DNA of 32,000 bases from Candidatus Baldrarchaeota archaeon (lineage in GTDB: Archaea; Asgardarchaeota; Baldrarchaeia; Baldrarchaeales; DXJG01), in assembly GCA_019056805.1 (NCBI GenBank), contig DXJG01000012.1, positions 1 to 32,000 of the forward strand, given 5' to 3'. This document shows positions 253-28,243 of this stretch, piece by piece (the stretch's first letter is position 1; each line of letters starts with the position of its first letter). Position numbers and translations under genes: made by a program. The notes beneath the pieces were generated by a model. It searched no databases, was not told the origin of the DNA, and saw nothing but the letters and a program-made list of their open reading frames with translations.

Positions 253-1845
253 TTAGTGCTTTTTAAGTTTTATACTGATTAATGCTACTGCTATTGCTAC
301 GACAATGACTATTGGGGCTATTTTCATAAATATGGGTGGTTCCTGCCCTCCGTGATCAAATGTTTCCTCCGTGCCAGTTTGTTCCTCGCCTCCAGTCTCT
401 TCTCCTGAGCTTGGAGATTCTTGGCCTCCTGTTTCCCCAGAAGATCCTTCTATTTCTATTATAGTGTTGTTCTCAACGACGATGTTTTTGACGTTATCTT
501 TTTCTATTTTTATCCATTCTCTTCCAGTTTCAACGTAGATCGTGTTATCTATTATTGTTATGTTTTCGGTGTATCCTCCCACATTGGGGTCCACACCAAG
601 ATAAATAGTGCAGTTTTTCAGAATGTTTGCTCTAATTACGATGTTTTTACTTTGCATAACTGGTAATTCAAGGTTTTCAAAATAGTTGTTTTCAACTGTT
701 ACCCCGTCAGTAGAAAGCAATAAAACACCTGCCTGATCTACGCGTGAAACGCCATTTGCATCAAACATCGGAACGCCCGTATAAATGAAACTGTTTCCTT
801 CAACAACCACATTTGCAGTTTGACCTCCAGTTTCAACTTTTACACCTATGAAACAGTCCTTGAAAGTGTTATTTCTCACAACAACTGAGTTAGAATATAT
901 TTCTACAGCTTCCCATAGCCCAATGAAACTATTATTAACAATTGTAATGTTGTACGTATAGGCTGCCGCTTGAAGCTCTGTGCCCTCTAAAATTTCCGTA
1001 TTATGGAAGATATTGTCAACAATCATAATATTACCACTATTCTCATACATTGCTAAAATTTTACCAGCATTCACAATCTCATTACCCTTCACAATAACGC
1101 TTCCGGTACCCATTAGGCAAATGGCCTCTAGAAAACAGTTATAAAACTCAAGTGCCTCAACTGGAATACTAATTTTGTTATTTACGATTTTAATGTCCAC
1201 ACAACTCGTTATCTCTAATATACGTGTCTGAGTAGGTCCACTTCCAGATTCAGACTGATAAAAGAAGTTTATTTCGCTGTCTACTATTGTAATGTTTTTG
1301 GAACAAGATATTCGAAAGTTATTTGACACTGTGATATTTAAATTAGACAGGTATAGATCGTCAATACCGCTCTGCAGATCTAAGTCTCCAATATCAGCAC
1401 CCGAGAAAACACCTGCTTGAAACCCTTCAACATAAAGTTTTCCGCTACTTCCCTTAAAAAGCAATCCTGCAACTGATCCTTCTGGACCTTCGACCGTTAC
1501 ATTTTTTATGTAAACTGTTCCGCCCTCGATATATATGAAATCAACCGGGTTGGAAAGCATTATTTTGCAATTCATTAGTTTAAGTATTCCATACACTTCG
1601 AACATAGGAGAGTCTAATGAATCGTATTGAATTACAGTATTATTACGTTCAAAGGTTTCTCCAGGATTAACTGTAACCTTGTTAGTTAAAGTTTCCTTAC
1701 TATTCAATGTAGCCGTGAAATCTAGGACTTGTATTCCATGTGCTTCCTCTATCTTAATTATGTTGTTTTCCAACCCTATATTTACTGTCAAAAACGTTAA
1801 GATAAACAATATTAATAGAAGTTTTATTAAATTTGGTTTATTCAT
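253..1845 (-). CDS. Secreted, C-terminally membrane-anchored right-handed parallel beta-helix (NosD/CASH/pectate-lyase-like) protein
   Basis: 530 aa. N-terminal signal peptide (MNKPNLIKLLLILFILTFLTV), many I.I.NN.F/I beta-helix turns, acidic Gly-rich linker (GETGGQE...EETGGEE), then a TM helix and KLKKH tail. GAGGAGGT RBS upstream. Confidence 0.85.
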   Translation of the reverse strand: MNKPNLIKLLLILFILTFLTVNIGLENNIIKIEEAHGIQVLDFTATLNSKETLTNKVTVNPGETFERNNTVIQYDSLDSPMFEVYGILKLMNCKIMLSNPVDFIYIEGGTVYIKNVTVEGPEGSVAGLLFKGSSGKLYVEGFQAGVFSGADIGDLDLQSGIDDLYLSNLNITVSNNFRISCSKNITIVDSEINFFYQSESGSGPTQTRILEITSCVDIKIVNNKISIPVEALEFYNCFLEAICLMGTGSVIVKGNEIVNAGKILAMYENSGNIMIVDNIFHNTEILEGTELQAAAYTYNITIVNNSFIGLWEAVEIYSNSVVVRNNTFKDCFIGVKVETGGQTANVVVEGNSFIYTGVPMFDANGVSRVDQAGVLLLSTDGVTVENNYFENLELPVMQSKNIVIRANILKNCTIYLGVDPNVGGYTENITIIDNTIYVETGREWIKIEKDNVKNIVVENNTIIEIEGSSGETGGQESPSSGEETGGEEQTGTEETFDHGGQEPPIFMKIAPIVIVVAIAVALISIKLKKH

Positions 1846-1928: not shown

Positions 1929-4900
1929 TCACAGTGTTTTTCGCCTTTTGATGATGAATATTATTGCTGCAATTGCCACTATGGAGACGGAAGCACCAAC
2001 GAGGTAAAATATTAGATTTTCAGTCAAAGGCCTCGTTGGGGCTGATACTGTGTAGCTGTACAATGTACTGTTAGCCAAGTTTCCAAGGGTGTCGTTTGCA
2101 TATATCTTGTAGTAAACAGTTGTGTCCACGGGCATAGCTGGTATTGTAGCTTCATATAAGCCGCTTGTAGCGTTATAGTTCATAGAAATATTGTACCATG
2201 TTGATAGATCGGTTGAATAGCTTAAGATTGCGGAATCAACGCCACTTGGATCAGTTATATTTGCTGTAACTTTAACTGTGTCATCACTAGTTGGCTCTTG
2301 TGGACTGTGAGAAACGTCCGTTATTGTTGGGCCTCCCATGTCTAAATACTGCTCTTTGCTCAAGAAACTATTTCCATAGATGTCCTCAGCATAGACTTTG
2401 TAGCAAATTGTTGCTCCTTCTGGTTGTGGTGGAATTGTTGCATGATATAGGTGTGTTGAATCGTCGTACGTCATATTTACTATATTCCATGAGGAACCGT
2501 TTGAGTACATTAATTGAATCTTTGAAATTTGGCTCCAATCTGAGACTAAAGCATATATGTTAATTGCTTCCCCTTTAAGCCGTATTAGCGGTGTCCTTAA
2601 AACAATTGCTATGTGGGGTGGAACAGTATCATTTTTGTTCCAGTTTCCGTACATATCGGAGCAATAGACTGTAAAAGAAGCACCATCTAACCATTCGGAG
2701 GGAAGTGGGCTAAACCAGTGTTCCCAAGTGATAGAATTGTTTATCCATGCATCCCAACCAATTGGAGGGCCGTAATCAACTTCATCTGGTCCTATACATC
2801 CTTCTGAATAACCATTCCAACCGTATTCTCCGTTTTCAATACTTATTTTTGGGCCTAGTATGCTGACTATAGCTAAGAGCCCTAAATTTTCTTTCCAGTT
2901 AGTGGACGCCAAATAGTTTTCATCCCAAGCAAAAAATTCAACGCATACTTGTGCTGTGCCAGATGTTTCATTTCTTATTATTGTTATATTAGTTATCTGA
3001 ACAAGAGGGCCGCTGATATCCTGGATTAAAGATATTTCAGCAGGTTCTTCTAACGGGTAAAGATCATAAATAAGATTGCCAGAGGAGTTTACCACAAGGT
3101 AGCTACCGCTACCATCGTAGTCGCTCCAATAGTTACCTGTTTGATTGCCTTTAAACTTTGATGCATATGAGATTAGGTAAAATCTAGGTGGGTTTTTGCC
3201 GCATTTTACATGAACGGTATTGTTTATGAAGTTATTTTGATAAATGTATGCTTTAGTATTGTCTATGTACATGCCGACATCATTGTATTCTATGGTGTTA
3301 TTTGCAATTCTGAAGTATTCGTTCCAGTCTGCATGTGTGTCTATGTGTAAACCATATGTGTTGTTGTAAATTTTGTTCCCCAGAACTACTCCTGGAAACT
3401 CCATTCTCTCCGCTATAGGTTCTAGGTGTAGCCATCTCAAAATGCCCATGTATATGATGTGATATAGCTTTATTCCAATGTACGTATTATTGTACACCTC
3501 GTTGCTGAGCAAAGTTACTAGTGGACAATCTTCTATGTAAACTCCTATTCGACTTGAATGTATGATGCTGTTATGTATCTTTATCATGCTTCGATAAGCA
3601 AATATGTTAGCAACTGCCGCACCGCTACATGTAACTCCAGTAATTGTTACAAAACTGGTATCTATAACTATTATGTTAAAGAATTTGTTATTAGATATGT
3701 AACTGTTGCAGATATCGATTTTTGTTGCGCCTCGATCCGGCACTTTGCCTTTGCCGAAATATATTTTGGGTAATGTTTTTATAAGTTCGCCGAAATCGTA
3801 GAAATCTAGTGCTGTAGATCCTTCTACACATACACCTATACTGTTATTCTCAACAGTATTGTTGTAGAAAACTATGTACGACGAGTTTGCAAGAGCAACA
3901 CCTATACTATTACTGCTAAAAATGTTATTTGCTATAACTGCGTAAGGTGCTTCAATCAATAGAATCCCATAATCGTAGTTATCGTGAATCTTACTGTTTA
4001 ATATTACAGCGTCCTGTGCTTCTATACATATTCCACCTCTATCTAATGGTCCAAATAAACCGGCACCGGAAATTTCAGAATTATCTATGTAGATGTGCGA
4101 TCCTCGTCTCGCCACAATGTAATAGCTCCCAGTTTCCTTTGATATTTTAGAGTTTATTATAGTTAATGAACCACCTGGTAAAACTTCTATTTTAATTGGT
4201 TTTACTTCGCCGCGAATTACGATTTGTGAATTTATGATTTCCAGGCTTGAATTTACAATTATGCTTCTATTTAAGATCATAGTTTCATCGCGGAAAATCG
4301 TAGGTTCGTTTATTATTAAGGGTTCGTAATATTCAAAGTGTGGTCTGACCTCAATAACTGTTAAAATTGAAACCTTGGGAATTGTGATCGATACGGTATC
4401 TCCGTTTACGGTGTATGGGACTTCTACTCCCTCCGGATAATCCTCACTATACACCCACACGGACAGTTGCTTATCTTTAAGTTGCGGAGGTAGTTTGAGG
4501 CTAAAGCTGACATTGTAGGCTCTGATGACTTTATCTGCTTCGAAGTCATAGTTAAAGTTTATAATTTGGAAAATCAGACAGTTTTCATCGTAGTTGAAGA
4601 ATCTGTAAATGTGAGCTCTCGTTGATAGGTCGGTTTGAACTTCTCGAGGCACATAAGTGTCTATAATGTTTTTGAAGGTTTCCAAAATGGAGTTAGCAGT
4701 ATCATCGTAGAGTGTTCTTAAAAGCAAGTAGTCACTTGGTGAAACATTTTTGATTGATACAATTAAACCATTACCGTACTCGTGAACATCGCCATCAAAT
4801 AGAGCTGCAAAGTCTCTACTTACTGGTTCTCCATACTCGTTATGCGTAGCGATTTCCCCTATTCCAATGATTATTCCACCGTTTTCAAGATAGTTTTTAA

Positions 4901-6509
4901 GCAGTTCTACTTGGTCATCTGTAAGACACACTGCATTAGATAGGACAATTGCCTTGTATTTTAGTAACCTAGATAGGGGAGGAGTCATATTTACCCAAAT
5001 GTTGTCTCCAAGCACAACAATGTCGAAAGTTCTATGGGAATCGGCCAGTAAGTAGTATGCGCCCTCGTAAGCATCGAAACTGTCCCCGAAAACCGAGGTA
5101 AGGTTTAGTTTCTTTATGTTGATGGCGGTCGCAACAGGATAGATTAATGCGATTTCACCGAATTGGCTTTGCCCAAATAAATGTGGATTTTCTTGAACCA
5201 GTCTGATAAACTGTGCAAAGTGGGTTTGATTGGTGCCTCCACTTAATGGAATACGGCCACTACAAACAATTATTTCTGCGAGACCTAAGTATTGTTCTTC
5301 TGGATCTGCACTTTTATTCCACCCGTTAATGAACCATTCAGTAAATCCTGTGGATTCCAATGAGCTCCATGGATAAATCCACGGATTAAAAGTTTTGTTT
5401 AAACTTTGAACTATTCTAAAATCTTTACTTGCAGTTCGATTAGGATAGTTAACCCAGCAATATTCCCAGTTCATTCCATCAACGTATTGGAGAACGAAAA
5501 TATCGTTTTCCTCTGTGCCAAGTCCTGGATTGAAATGTTGATGTCCAAATCTCGTGGAAATGTAGAAGTCTCTTCCAGTTTCTTCTTCCCATTCTTTAAC
5601 ACTTTCCCATAGCAATTTGTAAAGTTCTAGAACCATTTTCAATCTGAATTCTTCAAACTCTTTCCAGAGTGCTTTAACATATTCATTGTCCTGTGGACCC
5701 TCAATTCCAGGATGCGCAATTACTGATTCTTCAAAAATCATTGTATGGTTTTGATAGCCTAGATCTATGAGATACTGTGTAAAGTTAAACGAGCTTATGT
5801 CTGTTATGTTGAACTTTTCTTGTAATTCGGTGGCATTATATTTTGAGGCGAGATATTCATTGAATTTTTGCATTGTTTCTGGATCGAAGCTCCCTATGTT
5901 TTTGAATCCATCTCCACCGTCAAATTCTACGCCATCGATGCCAGCGTCGAAAAGAAACTTCATATAGTTTATGAAGAAGTTGCGCCATGCTTCTCGTCCT
6001 TCGTAGCCAATGCGTCCGGGTAAACTTACGAAGTACGTTCCGTTAAGATCCATGGGAGCTATGTCTTCCTTAGATAAATTGTAGTATTCCATGAAGTTTT
6101 CGTATTCGCTTAAGCTGCTAAAAGGCTTATATATTACGATTTTTATGCCCTTTGCATGTAGTTCTGCAATCCTTGTTTCAACTTGATCGAGTTCATATGG
6201 GAAGTCAAGATGGTATACATCACCTACACAAGTGACTCTAAATGGATAAGAAGCGAAATATCCGGCTCCGATGAATTCAATTGGGTAAAATCTTGAGCTG
6301 TAAAGATAATTTCGCTCGACGCTTACGTCGAGGATCAACGAATTCTTTGTTAAAAAATGCTGGTAATGCCACGGTGAAACGTCGTTTAAAAAAATTTTTT
6401 GAATGTAAGGAGTATTGACGTAGAGAGAGTATGAAATTGCTGGTAGAGAAAGTGTTATGATAAACAATAGGGTAAATAATTTAAGGATAGTAACGATGCC
6501 TTTTTTCAT
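1929..6509 (-). CDS. Large secreted membrane-anchored protein: glycoside-hydrolase-like TIM barrel + GH42-trimerisation/GATase1-like domain + beta-sandwich + parallel beta-helix + two Ig-like domains + TM anchor
   Basis: 1526 aa with a signal peptide. LHAKGIKIVIY and AGIDGVEFDGG barrel strands. FNEYLASKY insertion resembling GH42. EIALIYP...YKAIVLSNAVCLTDDQVELLKNYLENGGIIIGIG trimerisation-like motif. NosD-like NN.I..N..GI repeats. TM helix plus KRRKTL tail. Many N-x-S/T sequons. GAGGGT RBS upstream. Confidence 0.85.
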   Translation of the reverse strand: MKKGIVTILKLFTLLFIITLSLPAISYSLYVNTPYIQKIFLNDVSPWHYQHFLTKNSLILDVSVERNYLYSSRFYPIEFIGAGYFASYPFRVTCVGDVYHLDFPYELDQVETRIAELHAKGIKIVIYKPFSSLSEYENFMEYYNLSKEDIAPMDLNGTYFVSLPGRIGYEGREAWRNFFINYMKFLFDAGIDGVEFDGGDGFKNIGSFDPETMQKFNEYLASKYNATELQEKFNITDISSFNFTQYLIDLGYQNHTMIFEESVIAHPGIEGPQDNEYVKALWKEFEEFRLKMVLELYKLLWESVKEWEEETGRDFYISTRFGHQHFNPGLGTEENDIFVLQYVDGMNWEYCWVNYPNRTASKDFRIVQSLNKTFNPWIYPWSSLESTGFTEWFINGWNKSADPEEQYLGLAEIIVCSGRIPLSGGTNQTHFAQFIRLVQENPHLFGQSQFGEIALIYPVATAINIKKLNLTSVFGDSFDAYEGAYYLLADSHRTFDIVVLGDNIWVNMTPPLSRLLKYKAIVLSNAVCLTDDQVELLKNYLENGGIIIGIGEIATHNEYGEPVSRDFAALFDGDVHEYGNGLIVSIKNVSPSDYLLLRTLYDDTANSILETFKNIIDTYVPREVQTDLSTRAHIYRFFNYDENCLIFQIINFNYDFEADKVIRAYNVSFSLKLPPQLKDKQLSVWVYSEDYPEGVEVPYTVNGDTVSITIPKVSILTVIEVRPHFEYYEPLIINEPTIFRDETMILNRSIIVNSSLEIINSQIVIRGEVKPIKIEVLPGGSLTIINSKISKETGSYYIVARRGSHIYIDNSEISGAGLFGPLDRGGICIEAQDAVILNSKIHDNYDYGILLIEAPYAVIANNIFSSNSIGVALANSSYIVFYNNTVENNSIGVCVEGSTALDFYDFGELIKTLPKIYFGKGKVPDRGATKIDICNSYISNNKFFNIIVIDTSFVTITGVTCSGAAVANIFAYRSMIKIHNSIIHSSRIGVYIEDCPLVTLLSNEVYNNTYIGIKLYHIIYMGILRWLHLEPIAERMEFPGVVLGNKIYNNTYGLHIDTHADWNEYFRIANNTIEYNDVGMYIDNTKAYIYQNNFINNTVHVKCGKNPPRFYLISYASKFKGNQTGNYWSDYDGSGSYLVVNSSGNLIYDLYPLEEPAEISLIQDISGPLVQITNITIIRNETSGTAQVCVEFFAWDENYLASTNWKENLGLLAIVSILGPKISIENGEYGWNGYSEGCIGPDEVDYGPPIGWDAWINNSITWEHWFSPLPSEWLDGASFTVYCSDMYGNWNKNDTVPPHIAIVLRTPLIRLKGEAINIYALVSDWSQISKIQLMYSNGSSWNIVNMTYDDSTHLYHATIPPQPEGATICYKVYAEDIYGNSFLSKEQYLDMGGPTITDVSHSPQEPTSDDTVKVTANITDPSGVDSAILSYSTDLSTWYNISMNYNATSGLYEATIPAMPVDTTVYYKIYANDTLGNLANSTLYSYTVSAPTRPLTENLIFYLVGASVSIVAIAAIIFIIKRRKTL

Positions 6510-7002: not shown

Positions 7003-8298
7003 ATGAGTTCAGAATTGTATGTTGACGATTATACGAATGGAATTATTGGACCTCATGTGAAGATGCTTGGACCCATTGCTGACGGTGGAAGAATAACGTT
7101 TTTAACTGCCCCTGGTTGTTGGGGTCCGATGATTACGCCAACATTGAGAGGGGGACATGAGGTTTGTACTCCAGTTATTGTTGAAAATGCTGATATTGGT
7201 GATGCTGTCGCAATTCACATTGAGAAAATTGAAGTTAAATCTAAGGCAGCGTCATCTGGTATAGACGAGTCTGTGGAAGGGGCATTTATTGGTGATCCTT
7301 ATGTTGCTAAGAGATGTCCAGAGTGTAGAGAACCTTGGCCTGAATTTAAGGTTGAGGGCATTGGACAAGAAGCTATAAAGTGTAAAATTTGTGGTGTTTC
7401 TGCATCACCGTTTAAAATGGTTCACGGCTACACCATGGTTTTTGATGAAAATAAAAAATACGGATTGACAGTTGATGAAAAATTGGCTAGAGAAATAGCT
7501 AAGAAGGCGCATGAATATTCAGCTTTACCTGAAAAATTAATGCAAGTTCCGATTTTGGTTTTCGGTAAGGCCGATATTGTTGGGTTAGCTTCGAGGGTTA
7601 GGCCATTTATGGGACAGCTTGGAACAGTTCCAGCGGTGGATATTCCTGATTCGCATAATGCTGGAGACTTTGGATACTTTTTGATCAATGCTCCGCATCC
7701 ATATAGAATTACGCAGGAACAATATGAACGGGATTTGACTGATGGACATTTGGATGTAAATTCGGTTAGAGCTGGAACAATTGTGATTGCTCCTGTTAAG
7801 GTTAAGGGTGCTGGGGTTTATGCTGGTGATGCTCATGCTATGCAAGGTGATGGTGAAGTTGCAGGGCACACCACCGATATTACTGCTGAAGTTGGAGTTA
7901 AGGTTGAGGTGATTAAAGGTTTAAGTCTTGAAGGACCTATTTTGCTGCCATTGGAGGAGGATTTGCCACCTTTGGCTAAGCCGTGGCGTAAAGATGAATG
8001 GGATCAAATAGCTAATTTAGCTAAAAAATATGGTATTGAACCTGAACCAGTGGCGCCTGTGCAAATTATTGGTTCTGGTCCAACAATCAATGATGCGGCA
8101 GCTAACGGATTTCAAAGAGCAGCAAAACTATTTAACATGAGTGTTGAGGAAGTTCGTAACAGAGTTACGGTTACTGGGGCTGTTGAGATTGGAAGATTGC
8201 CGGGAATAGTTCAAGTAAGTATGCAGGTTCCAATTAGCGTACTTGAGGAACTTGGTATAGCAGACATCGTGGTAAAGCACTATAAGTTGCCATATTAA
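7003..8298 (+). CDS. Acetamidase/formamidase (FmdA/AmdA) family protein with a CxxC..CxxC insertion
   Basis: GDAHAMQGDGEV motif, GHEVCTPVIVENADIGDAVAIHI and RPFMGQLG segments typical of the family. Start moved from TTG 6982 to ATG 7003 because of the GAGGGA RBS (431 aa). Confidence 0.85.
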   Translation: MSSELYVDDYTNGIIGPHVKMLGPIADGGRITFLTAPGCWGPMITPTLRGGHEVCTPVIVENADIGDAVAIHIEKIEVKSKAASSGIDESVEGAFIGDPYVAKRCPECREPWPEFKVEGIGQEAIKCKICGVSASPFKMVHGYTMVFDENKKYGLTVDEKLAREIAKKAHEYSALPEKLMQVPILVFGKADIVGLASRVRPFMGQLGTVPAVDIPDSHNAGDFGYFLINAPHPYRITQEQYERDLTDGHLDVNSVRAGTIVIAPVKVKGAGVYAGDAHAMQGDGEVAGHTTDITAEVGVKVEVIKGLSLEGPILLPLEEDLPPLAKPWRKDEWDQIANLAKKYGIEPEPVAPVQIIGSGPTINDAAANGFQRAAKLFNMSVEEVRNRVTVTGAVEIGRLPGIVQVSMQVPISVLEELGIADIVVKHYKLPY

Positions 8299-8362
8299 TA
8301 CTATAACCTTTTATTTTATTAGTCAGGCTAATATCGGAAGATTTGTTGATCGTAGTTAGTGT

Positions 8363-9106
8363 TTAGTCCATGTAGTATCCACCATTTATGTCTATGACTT
8401 CTCCTGTTATGTAGTCGCATTTTATTAGGAATACTACTGTTTCTGCAACTTCTTCTGGCTTTCCAAATCTTCCCATAGGTACCCTACTCAGTATTTTCTT
8501 TTTCCTTTCCTCTGGGAGATTTTTTATCATTTCTGTTTCTATTGGCCCTGGAGCTATCGCGTTAACTGTTATATTGTATTTTAGTAGTTCTTGGGCGAGA
8601 GAAAATGTCATTCCTATTATTCCCGCTTTAGATGCTGCATAATGTGGGCCTACTGTGCCACCCATTTTTCCTGCAACCGAAGATATGTTAATTATTTTTC
8701 CTTCCTCATTTTTTATCATGATTGGAACCGCTGCTTTTGTACAGTTAAAAGCTCCAGTAAGATTTACGGTCAGGATTTTCTCCCATTCTTCCACAGGAAT
8801 ATCGAGTATGGAGAAGTGTTGTGGAATTATACCTGCATTATTTATGAGAATGTGTATAGTGCCAAAGTCATTAACTATTTTTTGAATCATCTCTTTAACT
8901 TCCGGATAATTAGAAACGTCTGCTTGATATGTTTTGGCTTTTACTCTGTGTTTCTCAGCTTCTTTGGCGACATTTTCGGCTTGTTCCTTGTTTTTTAGAT
9001 AATTGATTGCAATGTTCGCTCCTTCTTTCGCTAGCCGTAATGCTATTGCTTTTCCTATCCCTCTACTAGAACCGGTGATAAGGGCAACTTTATTTTTTAT
9101 TTCCAT
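8363..9106 (-). CDS. fabG: Classical short-chain dehydrogenase/reductase, FabG-like (3-oxoacyl reductase)
   Basis: TGSSRGIG Rossmann motif, NNAG, catalytic S...YAASK, VNAIAPGPIET, RFGKPEEVA. AGGTGA RBS at 9120-9115 favours ATG 9106 (247 aa) over GTG 9118. The substrate is not established. Confidence 0.85.
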   Translation of the reverse strand: MEIKNKVALITGSSRGIGKAIALRLAKEGANIAINYLKNKEQAENVAKEAEKHRVKAKTYQADVSNYPEVKEMIQKIVNDFGTIHILINNAGIIPQHFSILDIPVEEWEKILTVNLTGAFNCTKAAVPIMIKNEEGKIINISSVAGKMGGTVGPHYAASKAGIIGMTFSLAQELLKYNITVNAIAPGPIETEMIKNLPEERKKKILSRVPMGRFGKPEEVAETVVFLIKCDYITGEVIDINGGYYMD

Positions 9107-9310
9107 TTTATCTTTCACCTTTTAGGATGTGAAATTGTTCATGGACTGCTGTCTTTGTTTTTATTTTGATAAAAATATAATAGTCAAATAAAATAAATTT
9201 TTGATAAGTTTTTGTCTCTTTATTTTTACAAGTTATCATTTACAATTGCTATTTTAGTATTAATTAAAATGGAAAAAAGGTTGGAATAGAACTATTTTGT
9301 TTGGGTTTAT

Positions 9311-10768
9311 CTATCTTTTTTCTGGGATGTCTTCCTTTTTGATTCCTGCGAGTTTTGCTGCTTGTTCTATGTATTGGTCCCATTTTGCTGTTGCACGAAT
9401 CATGAGTTTTGCTGCAGCTGGGGATCCTCCTCCGTGCATGCAGCCTGGTATTCCTGCGCCACAAGTTAACCATTGGATTAAGTATGCAATTCTTGCTCTT
9501 GCTTCTCCGGGTGCTGCTGCTGTAAGGTATTTTTCTAGTAGTTTTCCGTATTTTGTGTTTTTGAGGTCTTTCCATGAAGGCATGCAGCCTGTTTCTCCTA
9601 TTCCTCCGGCGATTTCTTCGCATAGAACCTTTGTTTCATAGGGTAGTGTTGCGACGTGTACTTTGTTTACATTTGCTAGTAGTGCGTTTGGTATCCATGC
9701 GCCAGATGGATGTTTTTCGCCTAAAGTTGCTGCTGCTATGCCCATTCCGTAGGTTGTTTCATTGTTAATGATCATTTTGATTAATTGTTCTCGAAACACT
9801 TTTTCTGATAAACCGTTGGCTCTCGCTATTAAGACTGCAGATCCTACCATTATGTCTCCTTGTCCTGCTACACATGATCCTATTAGAGCTCTATAGGCTG
9901 ATGTAAAGTATATTATTGCTTTAAGTGCGTATTTCCATTCTCCACACATGAAAACTCTTTCCTTCGGTATGAATACGTCTTCGAAAAGTATCCATGCCTG
10001 TGTTATTCCTGTTCCTGCTGCTGGTAATTCGTATCCATTGCCTTCTAGTTCTCTTGCATCATCTGGATGTCTTGCTTCTACAATTGTTATTCCCTCAGCA
10101 TCTCTAGGCACTACAAAGGACACTGCATAGTCTTTGTCTTCTTCCCTTAAGCTAGTTGTAGGCATTACAAAAATTTCATTTGCAGCAGCTACTCCTGCTA
10201 TCATTACTTTTGCTCCACGTACAACTATACCATCATCTCTCTCCTCTACTATGTGTAGATATAAGTCTGGGTCTTTTTGTTTTGATGGCGGTAAAGTTCT
10301 GTCTCCTTTTGGATCTGTTAAGGCGCCTGCAACCGTTATAGCGTTTTGCTGCGCGTATTCTAGCCATTTTTTGAGTCTTTTATGATAGTCTGTTCCTTCG
10401 TTCTTATCTATTTCGTAGGTAGCTGCCCACATAGATTGTAAACAATTCCAACCTACGCATAATGCTCCGGTGCATGTTCCTGTTAAATTATACATTAATC
10501 GTTTGAAATTACAGTTTTTTATTACATCTTCCGGTGTTTCCATGACTGTTAGCCATCGCATTACCTTTTCGCCCGTTAATTTAGATTCCACTGTTACTAA
10601 GTCTTGATATTTTGGGTCTTGTGCTGCTTCAAAAGCCTTTGCATGAGAGGTAACGCATCTTTTTGTCGCAGGGTGCGTAGTTACATCCTCAATTAGTTCA
10701 CCGAACTTGTAGATATTTGGACGCATTTTCCTTAAACTTTCCTTATACTGTTCAGGTGTTTTAATCAA
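9311..10768 (-). CDS. 4-hydroxybutyryl-CoA dehydratase / 4-hydroxyphenylacetate 3-hydroxylase (AbfD/HpaB) family flavoprotein, divergent
   Basis: IKTPEQYKESLR start, ALTDPKGDR, DGIVVRGAK, FEDVFIPKERVFMCGE and MHGGGSP motifs. Cys pattern TGTCTGALCVG and GSC. TTG start with GGGGGT RBS. Confidence 0.85.
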   Translation of the reverse strand: MIKTPEQYKESLRKMRPNIYKFGELIEDVTTHPATKRCVTSHAKAFEAAQDPKYQDLVTVESKLTGEKVMRWLTVMETPEDVIKNCNFKRLMYNLTGTCTGALCVGWNCLQSMWAATYEIDKNEGTDYHKRLKKWLEYAQQNAITVAGALTDPKGDRTLPPSKQKDPDLYLHIVEERDDGIVVRGAKVMIAGVAAANEIFVMPTTSLREEDKDYAVSFVVPRDAEGITIVEARHPDDARELEGNGYELPAAGTGITQAWILFEDVFIPKERVFMCGEWKYALKAIIYFTSAYRALIGSCVAGQGDIMVGSAVLIARANGLSEKVFREQLIKMIINNETTYGMGIAAATLGEKHPSGAWIPNALLANVNKVHVATLPYETKVLCEEIAGGIGETGCMPSWKDLKNTKYGKLLEKYLTAAAPGEARARIAYLIQWLTCGAGIPGCMHGGGSPAAAKLMIRATAKWDQYIEQAAKLAGIKKEDIPEKR

Positions 10769-11060
10769 AAGAAACCCCCATCCCTAAAACTGATTATGAT
10801 AAGTGTATTAAATTATAGCTTACAAATATATTAACCTCACCATATAGTCTCCCCATCAAACTGTTATCTACCTTAGATTATTTGGTTTTCAATTTTAGAT
10901 GATTAACAGAAAGGCTGGAAACGAAGAAGTGTTGGTTAAACTCCAACCTACAAATAGAAGAAAATGATCTATTGCTCAATGCTATGAAACATCGGAAAAT
11001 AACGACTGGACATATTGAACAGTAAAATTTAAATAAAAGGAAAAAGAAACCTTTAGTCTG

Positions 11061-11195
11061 TATATTTGTGGTATTATAACCTAGAGTAATGAAGAATGGG
11101 AAAAATATGTTGATAAAGTGGATATGAAATCCTAAATTGCGAAATTAAACAAACGAGACTCATTCTGAGCACTAGGTTATAATACCATAAATATA
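11061..11195. repeat. 24-bp near-perfect inverted repeat (23/24) enclosing an 87-bp core
   Basis: Left arm tatatttgtggtattataacctag (11061-11084). Right arm ctaggttataataccataaatata (11172-11195). Single mismatch at 11068/11188. Confidence 0.9.
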
Positions 11196-11226: not shown

Positions 11227-14200
11227 ATGCGTAAAAAAGTTTTTTTAAAAGCTTTGATCTTATTATGCATTTTCATGGTAGTGACTATTAATTTGCCTAT
11301 CACATGGCAAGAATCAACAATAACCACAGCTACTTCTATAAAGAACCTGCCGGAAAAGCATACAACCAATAACTACATCCATCAAGGAAACAGTATTTCC
11401 CTAAAAACTAGTCAAATAAGTAACTTAGAATCTCTCACCATATACGATGAAATTTCTGGGAGAGACATTAGGGCATATGCTTTCGATTTACAGCAGTGCG
11501 ATGTAATACAAGCAAACTTTTCTGAAACACTAATAGAATTAAAATTCAAAGTAATAGATCCATTAGGAAACGAGTTGAGACACGCATATGTGGATTATAA
11601 CACAATAATATTCGTAGCATGGACAACTGGTAGATACGTGTTACAAGTATCAAACCCGGAACCAACAACAGCAATATTCAACGCAACAGTTTACAAATTA
11701 ACTGCAATAGAAACAACAACAGGAACAGTAAGCCAAACATTATCACCAGGGGAATACACGGGATACTATGTAAATTTCAACGGAACAAGCCAAGCATCAA
11801 CGTCACTAACGGGAACAGTAGGAACAGACTACAACCTATATATATTCGATTCAAACGGAAACCTACACGCATATAGTGAAAGAACAGAGTACCCAGACGA
11901 GGTAGACTTCGCCATACTATACCCAGAACTATACTACATCGTAGTGTACGCAAAAAGAAGCGGTGACGATGGAACCATGGGACTAAACATAATAGCAACA
12001 GACCCATACCTACTTGAAATCGGTACAACAGCAACAGAGCAAATAACAAACCCAACATCAACCATAATATATAAGATAACTACAACAAATGATTCAATAT
12101 ACAAGATAAATCTAACAACGCCGGACAGCTACATAAACAAGACAGTAATCGATGATGATCTGGAAGGCGATGTATCAGAATGGGAGATAGATGGAAACTG
12201 GACACTGATTGATTCGGATTACCATAGCGCAACATATTGTTGGAATGTTAATGAAACCGGGCAATCAATGCTAATTACACCAGTAATCGATTTAACAGCA
12301 GCAAAAAAGGGAACAGCAAAACTAGTATTTTGGCAGAAACAAGAAATATATGACGGTAGCTACTATGTGGATGTGTCCTCTGATGGTAAGGTAACTTGGA
12401 ACACGATCCTAACAATAAGTTATAACTCTTCTACGTGGGAGAAAAAGGAAATCGATATATCAAATTACATTGGGGAGCGAATACAATTACGATTCAGATA
12501 TAATGGAAGTTCATCAACCAGTTACTGGAAAATAGATGATATATGTGCAATAATGACCTATGGAACAACAATAATGAAAATATATAATGCTACACTAGCA
12601 TTAAAGTACACAGTAGATAACGAATATTCTAGCGCCTCACTTACGAGTTATATAAAACGCTTCGTATCACCAGCAAATGAAACATATTACTTGTTATTTT
12701 CAGTAACAAATGCAACAAGCTACACATTAACAGTAACGATTCCTGTGGAAGTAGAAATAAGAGAAAAAGGATTCTACTGGTGCGATTATGGCTATTGGAA
12801 GTGGTTTGCACTAAAAATGCCTAAGGAAACCACAACAAAGATATACAAGAAGCATTATACTAAAATTTATATTTACGACGAAGATCTGAATCTTCTTGTA
12901 ACCGCAGGATACGGAGAAATGGATATTAATAATATCACAGTACATAAAGATACGTACATATTACTAAAATTATATAGCCCAAGTTCTGATTATATCCGGG
13001 TTTTCACACCTTCAGAAGTTTCTTTCGTATCTCCTGGTACCTACGCACGTACAATTACTATAGAGGGTGCTGATTACGGTTTTTACATGAATGCGAGTGT
13101 TGGGGAACAAATTAGGTTAACTTTAACGGGTCCTGCTGGAACAGATGCTAATATATATGTATACTATGAAGGGGAGATATTAGCTAGAACTAAATCTACG
13201 TCGTATCCGGACAGAGTTATTTTCGCTGCTGTTCGATCTGGATTATATTTTGTTAAAGTTCGTAGCATATTGGGGAATGGTTCATTTACGGTTACGTATG
13301 CTAAGGAAGCAGTACCAGTTTTATTAGAACCTGAGACATCGCTTTCGGAGGAACTAGCGGGCTATGTTGGGTTTGCTGGATATAAGTTTCCATCTGATGG
13401 ATATCATTTTGTTCATCTTACTTTGAATTCCACAACAACATCCGATCTTATCATTAATGTGTATGATCCATATGGTTCACACCTATTAGTGCATAGATCG
13501 TTGGCTAATTATCCAGCTGAAGTATCGTTTAATACTGTTATGGACGGAGATTACATTATATTAATATCGTCGAAAACTGGTTATTTAGCAAACTATACAC
13601 TAATCTTCGAGGGAACAAGTAACTATGAGGTTTTTCCGGGAGCATATTCTGGATCTATAGGGTCTAGTTCTAGTACGTCTTCTTTAAGGGCTTATGCTTT
13701 TCATGCACCTTTAGGAGCAATAATATCAGCAAAAATGGACGAAGATTCGGGAGCAGTTATATGGATTGAGGGGCTTGATCAGAGGGGTTTAGTAAAGGCA
13801 TGCAATAGGACAAATATTTACGTTGGGACGAGAACAATAAAATATGCATCTCCTATGAATGGAACCGCATTTATAGGACTAATAAATAAAGGTTTAAGCG
13901 GCTCCTATAACATAACAATAGGAGTTCAACTTGTTGTTTTAGTATTCGGTGAAAATTACGACTTTAGAAAGCCTATTATATCTGATATATCGTATATTCC
14001 CAAAATTCCTCTGCCTACCGACGAAGTAACCGTTAAAGCAGCTGTTGCCAGTTTATTAAACATTACAGTTTCTGTGCAATTACACTGGACGATAGATGAT
14101 ACAACTTGGTATATTCAAGAGATGGCACAGATTCAGGGGGGAGCTTATTACGAAACGAGTATTCCTCCTCAACCACTTTTCACTCAAGTAAAGTTTAAAA

Positions 14201-14904
14201 TTGTTGCAGAAGAAGCTGACGGTGATAAACAAGAAACAAAAATATATAGTTATACTGTGACAGAAACTGAGCCTCCCACAGTACAGATAATAAGTCCAGA
14301 AGACGGGTTATATGTAAACACCACGTTAATTAGTGTTGCTTGGTCTGCGTCGGATGAAATATCAGGGTTAGATAAGATAGAAATCTATGTGGATGGATCA
14401 CTAAACGCTACGTTTCAACCAGATCAGACATCGTATCTGTTAACCTTAGCAGAGGGAAGGCATGAAATTAAAGTTAAAGCGTATGATAAGGCGGGAAACG
14501 TAGCTGAGGATGTGGTCACGGTAACGGTAGACTTAACAGCCCCAACTATACAGATCACGAATCCAGAAGATGGAGCTACGCTATCTGGTGAGAGTGTTGT
14601 CGTTTCTTGGAGTGCTAGCGATAATTTTGGTATCAGAGAATTTCAAATTTATGCTGATGACTCATTAATTGCTACCTTAGATGGCAGCGCTAGTTCTATT
14701 ACTTTAGCTTTTGGTACAGGCTCTCATACTATTCGTGTTGTCGCTATTGACCATGCAGGTAACTCCGCATACGATGAAATAACCATTACAGTACCCTCCA
14801 CTGCTCCTAGTACAGGAGGACTCAAAACTATTCATATCATTGGTGCAGCAGTAGTTACAGTCGCTGTTATCGGTGCAATATTTTACTTCAGAGAGCGACA
14901 TTAG
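11227..14904 (+). CDS. Secreted membrane-anchored surface protein: about 7 PPC-like beta-sandwich repeats, an inserted MAM/cleaved-adhesin-like jelly roll, and three Ig-like domains
   Basis: 1225 aa with a signal peptide. Repeated LTG..GTD.N.Y.Y...G......YP..V.F.....G.Y...V motifs. DDLEG..W...W...LITPVIDL...L.FW...WNTI...IDIS.Y.G..IQLRFRY...W.IDDI module. Two PTVQI.SPEDG...V.W.ASD...G Ig repeats. C-terminal TM plus FRERH. Confidence 0.85.
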   Translation: MRKKVFLKALILLCIFMVVTINLPITWQESTITTATSIKNLPEKHTTNNYIHQGNSISLKTSQISNLESLTIYDEISGRDIRAYAFDLQQCDVIQANFSETLIELKFKVIDPLGNELRHAYVDYNTIIFVAWTTGRYVLQVSNPEPTTAIFNATVYKLTAIETTTGTVSQTLSPGEYTGYYVNFNGTSQASTSLTGTVGTDYNLYIFDSNGNLHAYSERTEYPDEVDFAILYPELYYIVVYAKRSGDDGTMGLNIIATDPYLLEIGTTATEQITNPTSTIIYKITTTNDSIYKINLTTPDSYINKTVIDDDLEGDVSEWEIDGNWTLIDSDYHSATYCWNVNETGQSMLITPVIDLTAAKKGTAKLVFWQKQEIYDGSYYVDVSSDGKVTWNTILTISYNSSTWEKKEIDISNYIGERIQLRFRYNGSSSTSYWKIDDICAIMTYGTTIMKIYNATLALKYTVDNEYSSASLTSYIKRFVSPANETYYLLFSVTNATSYTLTVTIPVEVEIREKGFYWCDYGYWKWFALKMPKETTTKIYKKHYTKIYIYDEDLNLLVTAGYGEMDINNITVHKDTYILLKLYSPSSDYIRVFTPSEVSFVSPGTYARTITIEGADYGFYMNASVGEQIRLTLTGPAGTDANIYVYYEGEILARTKSTSYPDRVIFAAVRSGLYFVKVRSILGNGSFTVTYAKEAVPVLLEPETSLSEELAGYVGFAGYKFPSDGYHFVHLTLNSTTTSDLIINVYDPYGSHLLVHRSLANYPAEVSFNTVMDGDYIILISSKTGYLANYTLIFEGTSNYEVFPGAYSGSIGSSSSTSSLRAYAFHAPLGAIISAKMDEDSGAVIWIEGLDQRGLVKACNRTNIYVGTRTIKYASPMNGTAFIGLINKGLSGSYNITIGVQLVVLVFGENYDFRKPIISDISYIPKIPLPTDEVTVKAAVASLLNITVSVQLHWTIDDTTWYIQEMAQIQGGAYYETSIPPQPLFTQVKFKIVAEEADGDKQETKIYSYTVTETEPPTVQIISPEDGLYVNTTLISVAWSASDEISGLDKIEIYVDGSLNATFQPDQTSYLLTLAEGRHEIKVKAYDKAGNVAEDVVTVTVDLTAPTIQITNPEDGATLSGESVVVSWSASDNFGIREFQIYADDSLIATLDGSASSITLAFGTGSHTIRVVAIDHAGNSAYDEITITVPSTAPSTGGLKTIHIIGAAVVTVAVIGAIFYFRERH

Positions 14905-22086: not shown

Positions 22087-22989
22087 GTGTCTGTGAAAAT
22101 TGAAATGTTTGGTTTAAAACTGCCTAAGATCAAGCCAGGAGATGATTTGGTTAAACTAATATTGGATGAAGCTTTACGGGTAGCCGATGGCGTAAAGGAT
22201 GGAGATGTTGTAGTTATAACGAGTAAGGTTATCTCTAAGGCATATAACTTTTTAATTAAATTGGATGAAGTTAAACCCTCAAAAAAGGCTTTAAAAATGG
22301 CTAGGAAGCTTAATATGGATCCAAGGTTTATTCAAGCCGTACTTGATCAGAGCGATGAAATACTTTTCGTATTTCCGTTTTATGAATTGGTTAGAGAAGG
22401 GATAATTAGTATAGAGAAAGTGTCAAAGGACCTTAGTGGGGCATATGAGGCTTTAAAGAGAATTCCATATATGCTGGTTGTGAGAAGGGATCATCAAATT
22501 TATACAGATGCGGGTTTAGATTTTTCAAATAATCCTGAAGGTATACTTAGTGCTTTGCCTAGAAACTTGGATAAAATTGCTAGGGAGATTAGGAGAAAAA
22601 TAATGGAATTGACTGGGAAGGATGTAGCTGTTGTTATATCTGATACTGAGGTTTGGTTTTCACTTGGTTCCTTAGATTTTGCTAGAGGTTCTTCAGGTAT
22701 TGAAGTTGTTTCAAGAGATTTTGGGGAGTTAGATTTGTATGGTAAACCTAAGTTTGGTGGAGTAGATTATATTGTGCATGAAATTGCTTGTGCAGCAGCT
22801 CTTTTAATGGGTCAAACAGCAGAAGGTATTCCAGTAGTTATAATTAGAGGGTATAAATATCGGAGGAACGAAGAAGGTGTTTCAGACTACCAAATAGCTC
22901 CAGATAAGGTAAAGAAAGCTATTAGAAAAATAATGAGGTCCTCAATTGAAGCATTAGGATTAAAATGGTTGTTAAAACTATTTAAATAA
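22087..22989 (+). CDS. cofE: Coenzyme F420-0:L-glutamate ligase (CofE)-like protein, divergent
   Basis: LPKIKPGDDL, DGDVVVITSKVISKA, AGLDFSN, VAVVISDT, DLYG and IACAAALLMGQTAEGIPVVIIRG motifs. GAGGGG RBS upstream. Confidence 0.75.
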   Translation: MSVKIEMFGLKLPKIKPGDDLVKLILDEALRVADGVKDGDVVVITSKVISKAYNFLIKLDEVKPSKKALKMARKLNMDPRFIQAVLDQSDEILFVFPFYELVREGIISIEKVSKDLSGAYEALKRIPYMLVVRRDHQIYTDAGLDFSNNPEGILSALPRNLDKIAREIRRKIMELTGKDVAVVISDTEVWFSLGSLDFARGSSGIEVVSRDFGELDLYGKPKFGGVDYIVHEIACAAALLMGQTAEGIPVVIIRGYKYRRNEEGVSDYQIAPDKVKKAIRKIMRSSIEALGLKWLLKLFK

Positions 22990-23241
22990 GTAAACATCTA
23001 CATTTCATCCTGTCCCTAGCAAAATCTTTAGTCTTCTTCTGAGTTTCTATACGTCGATGCTAAATTTGTATATTTTTCTAGAACAAGGTTTGACAATTTT
23101 TCTATTAACTTCATTTATATTTTCTTTGGCAATTTATTCCAAACAAAAGACTTAAAAAGTTGTAGCATATATTACAATTAATAGTTTTTTCCAAAAGCGC
23201 CTAGAAGTTGCGTATCCTCCATAATATTGGAGGTTCGCAAG

Positions 23242-26200
23242 TTGCGTGTGGGCGCGAAACTATTAAGGTTTGTTTTTATCTTCTCGCTTATTGCTACATT
23301 ATGTGTATGTGATGTTATGCTCCCATTCAGTGCTCTTAGCAATTCTCATGAAACATTATCTCCATCAAGTGTTAGATATCCGTTTTCAGTAGATATAGGT
23401 CCAATCTATGAAGATAACAGACTAGTTGCATATGTACTTTACCCCATTCGCCAAGTCTACGTCGTTGACGTTTATAAAGTAGAGCTTCCCGATGAATTGA
23501 ATAAAACGAGTATCAGGGTTGGATATCTAAACAGTATGGGTATTGAACATTTAGATTATTGGAATGGTATAGATGGAATAGGATGGGAAGCAGAACTGAC
23601 TAGGTTTGAAGAGTTCATGAAATACTTTAACATAACTGCCGATAAAGATGGCAGAATAAATCTTGCTGGAGAACCCATATACCATGAGTTCTATGAAAGA
23701 AATCTTCTAGAAGTGCATTTCGCTAGGAAACACTGGCAAAATGTGCTTATAGAAATCTTGAAGATGATGTTTGATTCTGGAATGGCTGGGGTAGAGTTTG
23801 ATGGAGGTATCGGAGCGTATTCAGCGAGTGGGGGCTTCTTTACATTTGACAACGAAACCATGGAAGGTTTCAATGAATATTTAGCTTCTAAATATTCTGA
23901 AGAGGAATTAAGAACGCTTTTTGGCATAGAAAATATCGAGACATTCAACTTTAGGGAATATCTAAATAATCTTGGATATTATGATGATTCAACTATTAGT
24001 CCTGATGGGAGTGAAATTACAGATCCCAAAGCTAGGGCTCTTTGGAGAGAACTGGCATTATACCATTTAACATGCTTGGTTGATTTCTACAAAAAAATCA
24101 GAGAAAACATAGATGCTTGGGAGAATAAAAGTGGAAGAGATTTTATAGTGTTGATTAATGCGCCTACACTTCACTATAAAACCTGCTGGGGTTTGCCAAT
24201 AAATATCTTAGCTGTTCTTCAATACGTAGATGGGCTTAGCTACGAAGTGGATTGGAGAAGTGAGGGAAATGCTTATCCAAATATGACTTTGGCTCCTGAT
24301 TTTAGGATAGTAACCAGCTTAAGCAAGATGATAAGAAGTTGGACTCTTCCAACTTCAGGATTATCACCTGAATGGGCATTAAAATGTATTCCATTAGATT
24401 TTATTGCAGCAGCTGAACTCATAGCTGTCAGTGCTAAGGAAACAAACCCGCAACTTCCAGTATTGATTGATATAGATGACCTAAAACGTTTAGAAGATTT
24501 CAGCTTTCTAATTCAGAAGAACCCGCAACTTTACGATCAAGAAGATTATGGACAAATAGCTTTAATATATCCTATGGCCTCTGCCTGGTACTCGGAAGAA
24601 CCTCCTACAGCCGTGATACCTGTTGATCGTTATATTAGTTATGAGGGAGCTTATTATCTCTTAGCTGATGCACATTATCCAATAGACGTCGTGGTTTTTG
24701 GCGATAACATATGGTTTAATAGGACCCCCTCCTTAGGTGAATTGTTAAAGTATAAGGCTATAGTGTTAGCTAATGCAACTCATTTAACAGATGATCAAGT
24801 TGAGCTTATAATAGACTATGTAGAGAGCGGCGGAATTCTTATTGCTATAGGAGAACTGGGGGTTTATAATGAAACTGGAGCTAAGGTTAGTAGACCTGAG
24901 CTTTCATCTTTACTAGAAGGCACATATAGCACGATGCACGGTATAAATGTCTCCATACATAGTTATGGTAGTGGAACTGTTATTCACATCCCGGAAAACC
25001 TAGCTTGGGATTACTTCATGTATAGACTTTACTATGATCCAGATTCGAAGAATATTTTAAATGGGTTCAAGTCTATTTTGACATCTGTATTGCCTAGTGA
25101 AATCGAGACCAACTTAACAGATCGAACTCATATTATACGGTATAGGGGTAAAGAGGTTGAAAACCTCGTATTTTACATAGTCAATTATGAGTTTGATTTT
25201 GAGAAAAGGGAGTTAATTAAGCAATATAATGTTAGTTTTTCCTTTAAGCTACCGAGCTTCTTAGCTGAAAGAGAAATTCAAGTGAAAGTATATTCAGAAG
25301 AGAACACGGATGGCGAACTTGTTAATTTTGAAAAAGATGGCGATTGGATTCATATTTCATTGTCAGAAGTTCCTGTGTTGACAATTGTTGAAGTAAGACC
25401 CTATAAACCAAAAGATGAAACGACCGTGATATCTGAACCAACTACTCTTGAAAGTGAAACATTAATTTTGTCTGGAGATCTAGTAATCTCTTCAGATCTA
25501 GTTTTAAGGGATTCAAGGATCGTTGTGAATGCTTCAAGTTGGGAACCTATCTCTATTAGAGTTCTTCCGGGCGGTTCTCTTACGATGATTAATTCTGTCA
25601 TAGACAAAGAAGCGGGAAACTATTTTGTAGTCGTAGAGAAAGGTGCTAAACTTTACATGAGAAACTCTGAGGTTAGTGGAGCTGGAGTATGGGGAACTCT
25701 AGATCGAAGTGGATTTGTAGTGTTTGCTGACGACGTCGTAGTAACGGGCTGCAGCTTTCACAATAGCTTCGACGCTGGTCTCCTACTTTATAACGTTACT
25801 TATGCGGTAGTCTCGAATAATACATTCCGTGATAATAGGATAGGTCTTTCAATAGTAATTGCAGGAATGGTCAACGCTATGGGAAATAAGTATGTAAACA
25901 ACAGTATAGGTCTATATGCAACTGACATTATTAGACTTAAAATATCGGATAGCCTATTTTTGAATAATGGATTCCTAGGTATGGCTCTGAAGAGAGGCAA
26001 TTTCGAGATATTTAACACTACAGTTAAGGACTCGTTGCACCACGGCATTTATGTCAATTCGGGAACGATTAAAATATGTGAGTCAATAGTGGAGTCTAAT
26101 GAGGTTGGTATATTTGTCGACGGCTCTCCTTTAGCTATACTGTTAGGAAATAAGGTGTATAATAATACTAACATTGGCATATGGTTTAATCAGATAGTTT

Positions 26201-28198: not shown

Positions 28199-28243
28199 TT
28201 GACTTTTGGAAATTTACATGAGACATATTCTTGGGAGATAAAA

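Follow-up and report, generated by a model that had tools for sequence, protein, structure and literature searches.

The closest described systems are AbfD, the 4-hydroxybutyryl-CoA dehydratase of Clostridium aminobutyricum (structure 1u8v), and the corresponding enzyme of N. maritimus (6vjr). For AbfD-type proteins, the paper on the N. maritimus enzyme names C99, C103, C299 and H292 as ligands of the [4Fe-4S] cluster and Thr190, Glu257, Tyr296 and Glu455 as required for dehydratase activity (bioRxiv 10.1101/2020.02.05.935528). The same source counts Glu455 of AbfD among the active-site residues and mentions a water tunnel behind the cluster, which is lined by S98 and G255 and also by A447 and S448 (bioRxiv 10.1101/2020.02.05.935528). 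Genome surveys, including those of Asgard archaea, infer the two archaeal 4-hydroxybutyrate cycles of CO2 fixation from the dehydratase as their key marker (PMC9802188). The present analysis concerns an AbfD-family gene at positions 9311 to 10768 of a 32,000-nucleotide stretch from a Candidatus Baldrarchaeota archaeon (contig DXJG01000012.1, positions 1 to 32,000), the whole of which is called the window. Its product, hereafter the variant, is a functional protein of a distinct AbfD-fold subfamily that is strongly conserved; in it, the dehydratase catalytic apparatus is gone, while the scaffold, three cysteine ligands and two new cysteines are conserved under selection. The partners of this clade are an electron-transferring flavoprotein (ETF) and a dehydrogenase resembling butyryl-CoA dehydrogenase (Bcd), not the enzymes of 4-hydroxybutyrate metabolism. 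The best reading, to which we assign a probability of roughly 50%, is that the variant is not a dehydratase but an FAD/[4Fe-4S] oxidoreductase that is coupled to ETF and takes part in short-chain acyl-CoA metabolism. The gene and the residues on which the comparison with AbfD turns are as follows (ACAD, acyl-CoA dehydrogenase):

9311..10768, minus strand: gene for the divergent AbfD-family FAD/[4Fe-4S] protein (P0001, 485 aa), TTG start at 10768, TAG stop at 9311-9313
10457..10474, minus strand: Cys99-x4-Cys104 (CTGALC), two of the three retained cluster cysteines, one residue longer than CFQRC of AbfD
10196..10198, minus strand: Ala191 at the site of AbfD Thr190 (hydrogen-bond donor to flavin N5), aligned with the Thr of the ACAD 'FIT' motif
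9998..10006, minus strand: Ile255-Thr256-Gln257, Gln in place of AbfD Glu257 and bulky Ile in place of the tunnel-lining Gly255
9869..9895, minus strand: Tyr292...Ile296..Cys299-Val300, with His292 to Tyr, Tyr296 to Ile and Lys300 to Val, Cys299 being kept
9584..9586, minus strand: Cys395 in a clade-specific two-residue 'GC' insertion (ETGC-MPS), invariant in the clade and also found in the sister form P0124
9428..9442, minus strand: Cys443-MHG-Gly447 (CMHGGGS), an invariant new Cys aligned with AbfD Ser456, and Gly447 for Ala460

Residue states were taken from a phmmer alignment to 1u8v and from an 80-sequence MAFFT alignment. Both alignments bear out the motif comparison of an earlier, sequence-only reading of this DNA: all motifs quoted there are present, with CFQRC changed to CTGALC, the replacements H292Y, Y296I, K300V, E257Q and T190A, the retained C299 and the new Cys443. 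Two points of that comparison have to be amended. The loss of Glu455 holds, but not as the simple substitution by Gly that had been claimed, as the four residues Y452 to E455 of AbfD are deleted in the variant and Cys443 directly follows the gap, preceding the conserved MHGxGSP. Likewise, the one additional cysteine that had been noticed is real, but a second invariant new cysteine, Cys395, had been missed. The tunnel residues S98 and G255 of AbfD correspond to the bulkier Thr98 and Ile255. At two positions the window's lineage departs from its own clade, with Leu instead of the predominant Arg at position 103 and with Ala instead of the predominant Cys at the Thr190 site. Altogether, 34 alignment columns are fixed differently in the variant and the canonical group; these changes lead mostly from polar or charged to hydrophobic or small residues and lie near the flavin (H to M189, Q to I190, N to A195) and the cluster. 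Eighty columns are at least 97% conserved across the variant clade and canonical AbfD, among them those of the TDPKGDR and MHGxGSP motifs, and within the variant clade the mean column identity amounts to 78% over the whole 485 aa.

Sequence and fold both place the protein beside AbfD. The best solved relative in phmmer searches is AbfD itself (1u8v; E 9e-102, 344 bits), followed by the N. maritimus enzyme (6vjr; 4e-91) and then by HpaB proteins at 1e-33 or worse, and the identity to the two dehydratases is 39-45% over the full length. An AlphaFold2 model computed with 40 clade members as input (mean predicted confidence, pLDDT, 88.7) superimposes in Foldseek on chain A of 1u8v with a template modelling (TM) score of 0.94 and a root-mean-square deviation of 1.9 A, which indicates the three-domain AbfD/HpaB-type fold; TM is 0.93 to 6vjr and about 0.5 to ACADs. 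The formal alignment, one of the checks named in the sequence-only reading, agrees with it in that the three cluster cysteines are kept and the catalytic residues are replaced, and the structure model shows the shared fold. For an HpaB-type two-component flavin monooxygenase speak the Pfam domains HpaB_N (290 bits) and HpaB (HpaB_C, 140 bits) as well as the NCBI names of relatives such as '4-hydroxyphenylacetate 3-hydroxylase'. Both domains are found in AbfD too and do not discriminate. HpaB (2yyg and others) resembles the variant in these domains and in overall fold (TM about 0.82), but has no Fe-S cluster and only 20-22% identity, and its phmmer score is 118 bits against the 344 for AbfD. 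The HpaB equivalog models score far below their cut-offs (TIGR02309, 158 bits with a cut-off of 480; TIGR02310, 100 bits with a cut-off of 885), the three cluster cysteines are retained and the hosts are anaerobes. A monooxygenase of this type, against which the cysteines had already been held in the sequence-only reading, is effectively excluded.

The replacements are not peculiar to the window. A search through 5.8 billion proteins gave 120 relatives, 62-94% identical, that all have the same signature, and among GTDB species genomes a sharp identity gap separates 24 genes at 57-93% from 55 genes at 40-45%. On the genome contigs, the signature Cx4C/Q257/Y292/I296/C299/V300/C443 occurs in all 24 variant genes, and all 55 canonical genes have Cx3C/T190/E257/H292/Y296/C299/K300. 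In a maximum-likelihood tree the variant group forms one side of a branch with an SH-aLRT support of 100. Hosts of the clade comprise Thermoplasmata, Bathyarchaeia, Asgard archaea, Zixibacteria, Ignavibacteria, Dehalococcoidia, Synergistaceae and Syntrophobacter. Within the window's own phylum the variant is rare: variant-level identity was found in 4 of 251 sampled genomes, namely the own genome, two congeneric genomes and one from a different family, and canonical-like paralogues are common among the same genomes. The own genome, which is 91% complete, contains a single member of the AbfD family, the window gene.

The nearest public relative (L002) belongs to a Candidatus Baldrarchaeota metagenome-assembled genome (MAG); it is 93% identical and has the same neighbouring genes for a short-chain dehydrogenase/reductase (SDR) and an amidase. 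Between this orthologue and the window gene, the ratio of nonsynonymous to synonymous substitution rates (dN/dS) is 0.057 at a dS of 0.71, which implies strong purifying selection on the variant gene. A decaying, non-functional AbfD paralogue, as could be supposed from the complete loss of the known catalytic residues, from the orphan position of the gene in its own genome and from two copies elsewhere that look broken, is thereby effectively refuted, given also that the replacements are invariant across phyla and that the reading frame is intact. Of the two copies in question, one (L015, 87% identity) is split into three open reading frames (ORFs) and the other (G018:C151:292-1311) has two in-frame TGA codons; they may represent sequencing errors or real pseudogenes. 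The contig of the former is labelled Odinarchaeota, an odd label given its 87% identity to a Baldrarchaeota-like gene.

Outside the clade, further forms without the canonical ligand set were encountered. A sister form from Synergistaceae (P0124, MDR2528554.1) combines Cx4C, including an additional Cys100, with Tyr292 and Cys395, whereas position 443 is Phe. Four others (P0132, P0140, P0149 and P0170) share Cx4C but carry Gln, Phe or Leu at position 292 and lack both new cysteines. A search of the whole family in a library clustered at 50% identity gave 2296 representatives at E<=1e-3. The AbfD family is far more diverse than its two characterised enzymes suggest, with several clades lacking His292.

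The gene neighbourhoods, too, differ between the two groups. Neighbours were clustered separately for variant and canonical loci, and both resulting gene sets were then counted in both groups by tblastn. The 105 variant loci consist of 24 genomic loci, 80 metagenomic loci and the window, as compared with 56 canonical loci; for the metagenomic loci, contigs were scanned with the clade alignment and counts were made only among loci with enough flank. For the genomic loci together with the window, the counts were:

AbfT-type CoA-transferase: canonical 39/56, variant 0/25
Iron-containing alcohol dehydrogenase (Fe-ADH): canonical 26/56, variant 1/25
NifU-like protein: canonical 12/56, variant 0/25
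ACAD: canonical 6/56, variant 9/25
EtfB: canonical 1/56, variant 8/25
EtfA: canonical 1/56, variant 8/25
DUF6125: canonical 0/56, variant 3/25

Neither AbfT nor Fe-ADH was detected at any of the 80 metagenomic variant loci, so that AbfT is absent from all 105 variant loci and Fe-ADH is present at one. What lies upstream of the variant at the metagenomic loci instead is the following:

DUF6125 gene abutting the variant gene: 31/61 loci
EtfA within 1.8 kb: 24/47 loci
EtfB within 2.7 kb: 22/42 loci
ACAD within 6.5 kb: 18/26 loci
AMP-forming CoA ligase within 6.5 kb: 17/26 loci

About half of the loci thus have the order ACAD (Bcd-like)-(CoA ligase)-EtfB-EtfA-DUF6125-variant. At the metagenomic loci, DUF6125 and EtfA occur together in 23 cases, are both absent in 21 and occur one without the other in 3; therefore two context classes exist, a full operon and an orphan gene, and the window copy is an orphan. 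The unusual Ala191 and Leu103 of the window's lineage do not track this distinction between orphan and operon. In one operon, the closest matches of the ACAD (1.6e-142), EtfB (2.3e-38) and EtfA (3.2e-52) are all to the bifurcating Bcd/EtfAB complex 5OL2 from C. difficile; CarCDE, LctBC and the A. fermentans Etf rank next, all ahead of non-bifurcating ETFs. Further neighbours of variant genes are a PaaK-like ligase, a family-I CoA-transferase, a DUF2148 ferredoxin-domain protein and FixC/FixX-like genes, the latter following the variant-ACAD-Etf cluster in Syntrophobacter loci. On the canonical side, a NifU-like protein of about 92 aa was observed directly downstream of abfD in 12-15 of the 56 loci (L026-L081) and never beside a variant gene; it might serve the genuine dehydratase specifically, in the assembly or repair of its cluster.

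The sequence-only reading had considered a 4-hydroxybutyryl-CoA dehydratase unlikely, and this judgement is reinforced by the separate clade, by AbfT never being adjacent and Fe-ADH almost never, and by the linkage and fusion to ETF. Still, the variant might form crotonyl-CoA with a re-invented catalysis (e.g., with Tyr292 and Cys443 as acid/base), be it as dehydratase, as vinylacetyl-CoA isomerase or by gamma-elimination on another 4-substituted acyl-CoA, and pass the product to Bcd/EtfAB for conversion to butyryl-CoA. A CoA ligase, the variant, a Bcd-like ACAD and a bifurcating-type EtfAB would fit the sequence from acid to acyl-CoA, crotonyl-CoA and butyryl-CoA, and archaeal 4-hydroxybutyrate pathways employ AMP-forming ligases and not AbfT. 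Moreover, the variant retains MHGxGSP along with many charged residues common to both groups, and consecutive enzymes of a pathway can also fuse. The operon alone is compatible with this explanation, because Bcd/EtfAB naturally consumes the product of AbfD. Nevertheless, we regard it as fairly unlikely: all five residues reported as essential for dehydration or cluster ligation have changed together and the pocket has become hydrophobic, the residues of the water-escape tunnel are bulkier, the 4-hydroxybutyrate dehydrogenase (Fe-ADH) accompanies 1 of 105 variant but 26 of 56 canonical loci, and it is EtfA in particular, with its shuttling FAD, to which the variant is repeatedly fused.

These natural fusions comprise at least eight protein clusters of EtfA and the variant (P0123, P0125 and P0280-P0285), all with the full signature and with the variant at the C-terminus of EtfA. 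P0123 (825 aa) consists of a complete EtfA with both its ETF and ETF_alpha domains, a short linker and a variant-clade domain carrying the full signature; this cluster holds eight members of 825 aa from independent JGI, ENA and Logan contigs. In the library clustered at 50% identity, the clade collapses to one representative and this 825-aa fusion. Six further clusters of this kind were found among longer proteins (851-877 aa), including sequences from Eisenbacteria and Elusimicrobia MAGs. One additional cluster (P0287) is a fusion of the variant, again with full signature, to an ACAD. A different arrangement is found in P0286 (936 aa, JGI, three members, one contig), where the variant domain with full signature is fused by its C-terminus to a pyridoxal phosphate-dependent enzyme of Cys/Met metabolism (Aminotran_1_2 / Cys_Met_Meta_PP). 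This single cluster could point to C4 amino-acid gamma-elimination chemistry or be a gene-calling artefact.

The fusion to EtfA also suits a pure electron-relay or storage subunit, in which FAD and an all-Cys cluster would serve a Bcd/EtfAB-type complex without any organic substrate, e.g., as a low-potential electron exit like that thought to be formed by the ferredoxin domains of CarE/LctC. In favor of this are the loss of every acid/base residue and the ACAD of the operon, which is already able to do the substrate chemistry. However, the thioester-region motif MHGGGSP and the highly conserved columns in common with canonical AbfD are kept, the column identity within the clade over the full length is more than a relay seems to need, and half of the variant loci lie far from any ETF gene, so that a substrate-free relay appears quite improbable.

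From the lost catalytic residues, the conserved cysteines and the ETF and Bcd-like partners taken together, we infer a changed role of the cluster and an exchange of electrons with EtfA. For the ETF-coupled oxidoreductase, this would mean that the [4Fe-4S] cluster no longer binds substrate as a Lewis acid with a labile His ligand, but has become a buried electron-transfer center with a new ligand. The variant would dock on EtfA in the way Bcd does, and electrons would pass between the ETF and its own FAD and cluster, whereby a short-chain, probably C4-like, acyl-CoA would be oxidized or reduced; DUF6125, with its predicted V4R/Bet3-like ligand-binding fold, might act as accessory subunit. The earlier proposal of an FAD/[4Fe-4S] enzyme, perhaps with a fourth cysteine ligand, is consistent with all this, except that there are two candidate cysteines and not one. 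Cys443 is a candidate by position, because it resides on the shortened loop corresponding to residues 447-456 of AbfD, whose start (A447, S448) lines the tunnel and whose end (E455) lies in the active site. Cys395 is a candidate by phylogenetic co-occurrence with Tyr292, because the sister form P0124, with Tyr292 and Cx4C but Phe443, has this cysteine as well; Tyr292 itself is a further possible ligand. Cys395 may lie in the loop that comes after the ACAD-like 'IAGG' motif. Active-site cysteines act as acid/base in class 1 dihydroorotate dehydrogenases and in dihydropyrimidine dehydrogenase, and by analogy Cys443 could have taken over this function from Glu455. Taken to its full extent, the proposal is that the radical-dehydratase scaffold of AbfD became a new terminal module of a bifurcating-type ETF, in which a fully ligated cluster and FAD exchange electrons with EtfA, redox chemistry, possibly of a radical/thiol kind involving Cys443 or Cys395, takes place on a short-chain acyl-CoA, and DUF6125 is the ligand-binding accessory. 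This combined picture is tentative and, in all its parts at once, rather doubtful.

Several observations weigh against an ETF-coupled oxidoreductase. The FAD and the cluster of the variant are predictions from residue conservation. The genes for ETF, ACAD and DUF6125 are absent nearby in about half of the clade loci, including the window and the other Asgard copy, and neither an ETF nor a DUF6125 gene precedes the variant in the window. The neighbourhood counts stem from related sequences and are not phylogenetically independent. As Bcd/EtfAB is the natural consumer of crotonyl-CoA, the genuine product of AbfD, operon and fusion could reflect a shared pathway. Finally, the combination of Cys395 with Phe443 in P0124 shows that Cys443 is not obligatorily paired with Tyr292.

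Set beside the described systems, the variant is similar to AbfD and the N. maritimus enzyme in fold and in three of the four cluster ligands (Cys99, Cys103/104, Cys299). It differs from AbfD by Tyr292, by Cx4C instead of Cx3C, by the replaced Thr190, Glu257, Tyr296 and Lys300, by the deleted Glu455 and by the new Cys395 and Cys443. The gene context of the clade differs as well, featuring ACAD, EtfBA, DUF6125 and EtfA fusions instead of AbfT and 4-hydroxybutyrate dehydrogenase. With Bcd/EtfAB of C. difficile (5ol2), CarCDE (6fah) and Ldh-Etf (7qh2) it has in common a tetrameric, ACAD-type flavoprotein fold, encoded in relatives of the variant beside EtfB/EtfA, and the presumed docking on EtfA is modelled on complexes of the Bcd/EtfAB type. 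Compared with Bcd and other ACADs, however, the relationship is distant (TM about 0.5), and the variant has Fe-S cysteines and lacks the flavin-N5 Thr (Ala191). An hhalign comparison aligned only the middle domain with ACAD (probability 78%); no counterpart of the catalytic Glu of ACADs was found in the variant, the C-terminal domain that carries this Glu being outside the alignment. ETF:quinone oxidoreductase and FixC-type partners of ETF contain FAD and a [4Fe-4S] cluster. By analogy the likeness would be functional, with ETF paired in each case to a protein that contains a single FAD and a single [4Fe-4S] cluster, but their fold is unrelated and the variant has no membrane or quinone site. 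Literature searches yielded no paper on the variant clade, the Tyr292 signature, ETF-linked or ETF-fused AbfD homologues or DUF6125.

The DUF6125 protein of about 178 aa carries five invariant Cys and a near-invariant His (C...C...CxxCPPDxH...C). Its model (pLDDT 89) is closest to the phenol-sensor domains of DmpR, PoxR and MopR, followed by Bet3/TRAPP, H-NOX and a V4R protein, with borderline scores (Z from 8.8 to 5.5, TM about 0.5). As far as such a model allows, this points to a small-molecule-binding fold of the V4R type. DUF6125 occurs in 154 of the 251 sampled genomes of the phylum irrespective of the variant, which is present in 4; genome-wide co-occurrence was thus discarded as an uninformative discriminator, adjacency being more informative. 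The only DUF6125 gene of the own genome (L083, G000:C11:143000-160000; ORF 10248-10790, minus strand) immediately precedes an aldehyde:ferredoxin oxidoreductase ORF of the same strand (8108-9952, minus strand), and genes for a flavin reductase-like protein and an MttB-family methyltransferase are nearby.

The subfamily is widespread and bears the database label 4-hydroxybutyryl-CoA dehydratase despite the replacement of every catalytic residue; JGI, for instance, annotates members of the variant clade in this way. If the clade acts otherwise, inferences of CO2 fixation are inflated for Thermoplasmata, Bathyarchaeia, Asgard archaea, Zixibacteria and others. Furthermore, the proposed function would amount to a natural experiment, in which a His-ligated Lewis-acid cluster was repurposed with the fold, the FAD scaffold and three Cys ligands unchanged. 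The repeated fusion to EtfA points to an unrecognized partner of bifurcating-type ETF, a class of partners with few members so far that attracts current attention in the study of anaerobic energy conservation. If true, it would constitute a previously unrecognized ETF-dependent enzyme system, widespread in anaerobic sediment archaea and bacteria.

In the own genome, four ACADs, two ACAD-adjacent EtfBA pairs, a crotonase, two 3-hydroxyacyl-CoA dehydrogenases and the one DUF6125 are encoded on other contigs, and canonical AbfD, AbfT and Fe-ADH gave no match with the queries used. This fits a role of the variant in C4 acyl-CoA metabolism, while the window itself gives no tie to ETF. The features flanking the variant gene are:

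8363..9118, minus strand: FabG- or acetoacetyl-CoA-reductase-like SDR downstream of the variant, probable ATG start at 9106 with AGGTGA upstream, syntenic in the Baldrarchaeota relative
10769..10880, minus strand: non-coding region upstream of the variant with a G-rich, ribosome-binding-like stretch (GGGATGGGGG) and an AT-rich, TATA-like sequence, as read from the sequence

A T-run follows the stop codon of the variant gene, and the SDR has its own AGGTGA-ATG start; the SDR looks like a separate transcription unit, and it may be functionally related to the variant through C4 acyl-CoA chemistry. Further upstream, at 11061-11195, inverted repeats of 24 nt (96% complementary) enclose 87 bp and end about 30 nt before the start of the gene at 11227-14904. 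They are located in the divergent intergenic region common to the AbfD-like gene and this gene, which encodes an Ig-domain surface protein of 1225 aa. It is one of four large predicted surface proteins within the 32 kb window (253-1845, 1929-6509, 23227-27396 and 11227-14904), three of which are of the right-handed beta-helix/NosD type (530, 1526 and 1389 aa) and one of the Big_7/glucodextranase-B type (1225 aa). Besides, in this Asgard genome the window contains a gene for an F420-0:gamma-glutamyl ligase of the CofE family at 22087-22989 and a NikR-type regulator (27717-28115) divergently paired with a P-type ATPase (28199-30199).

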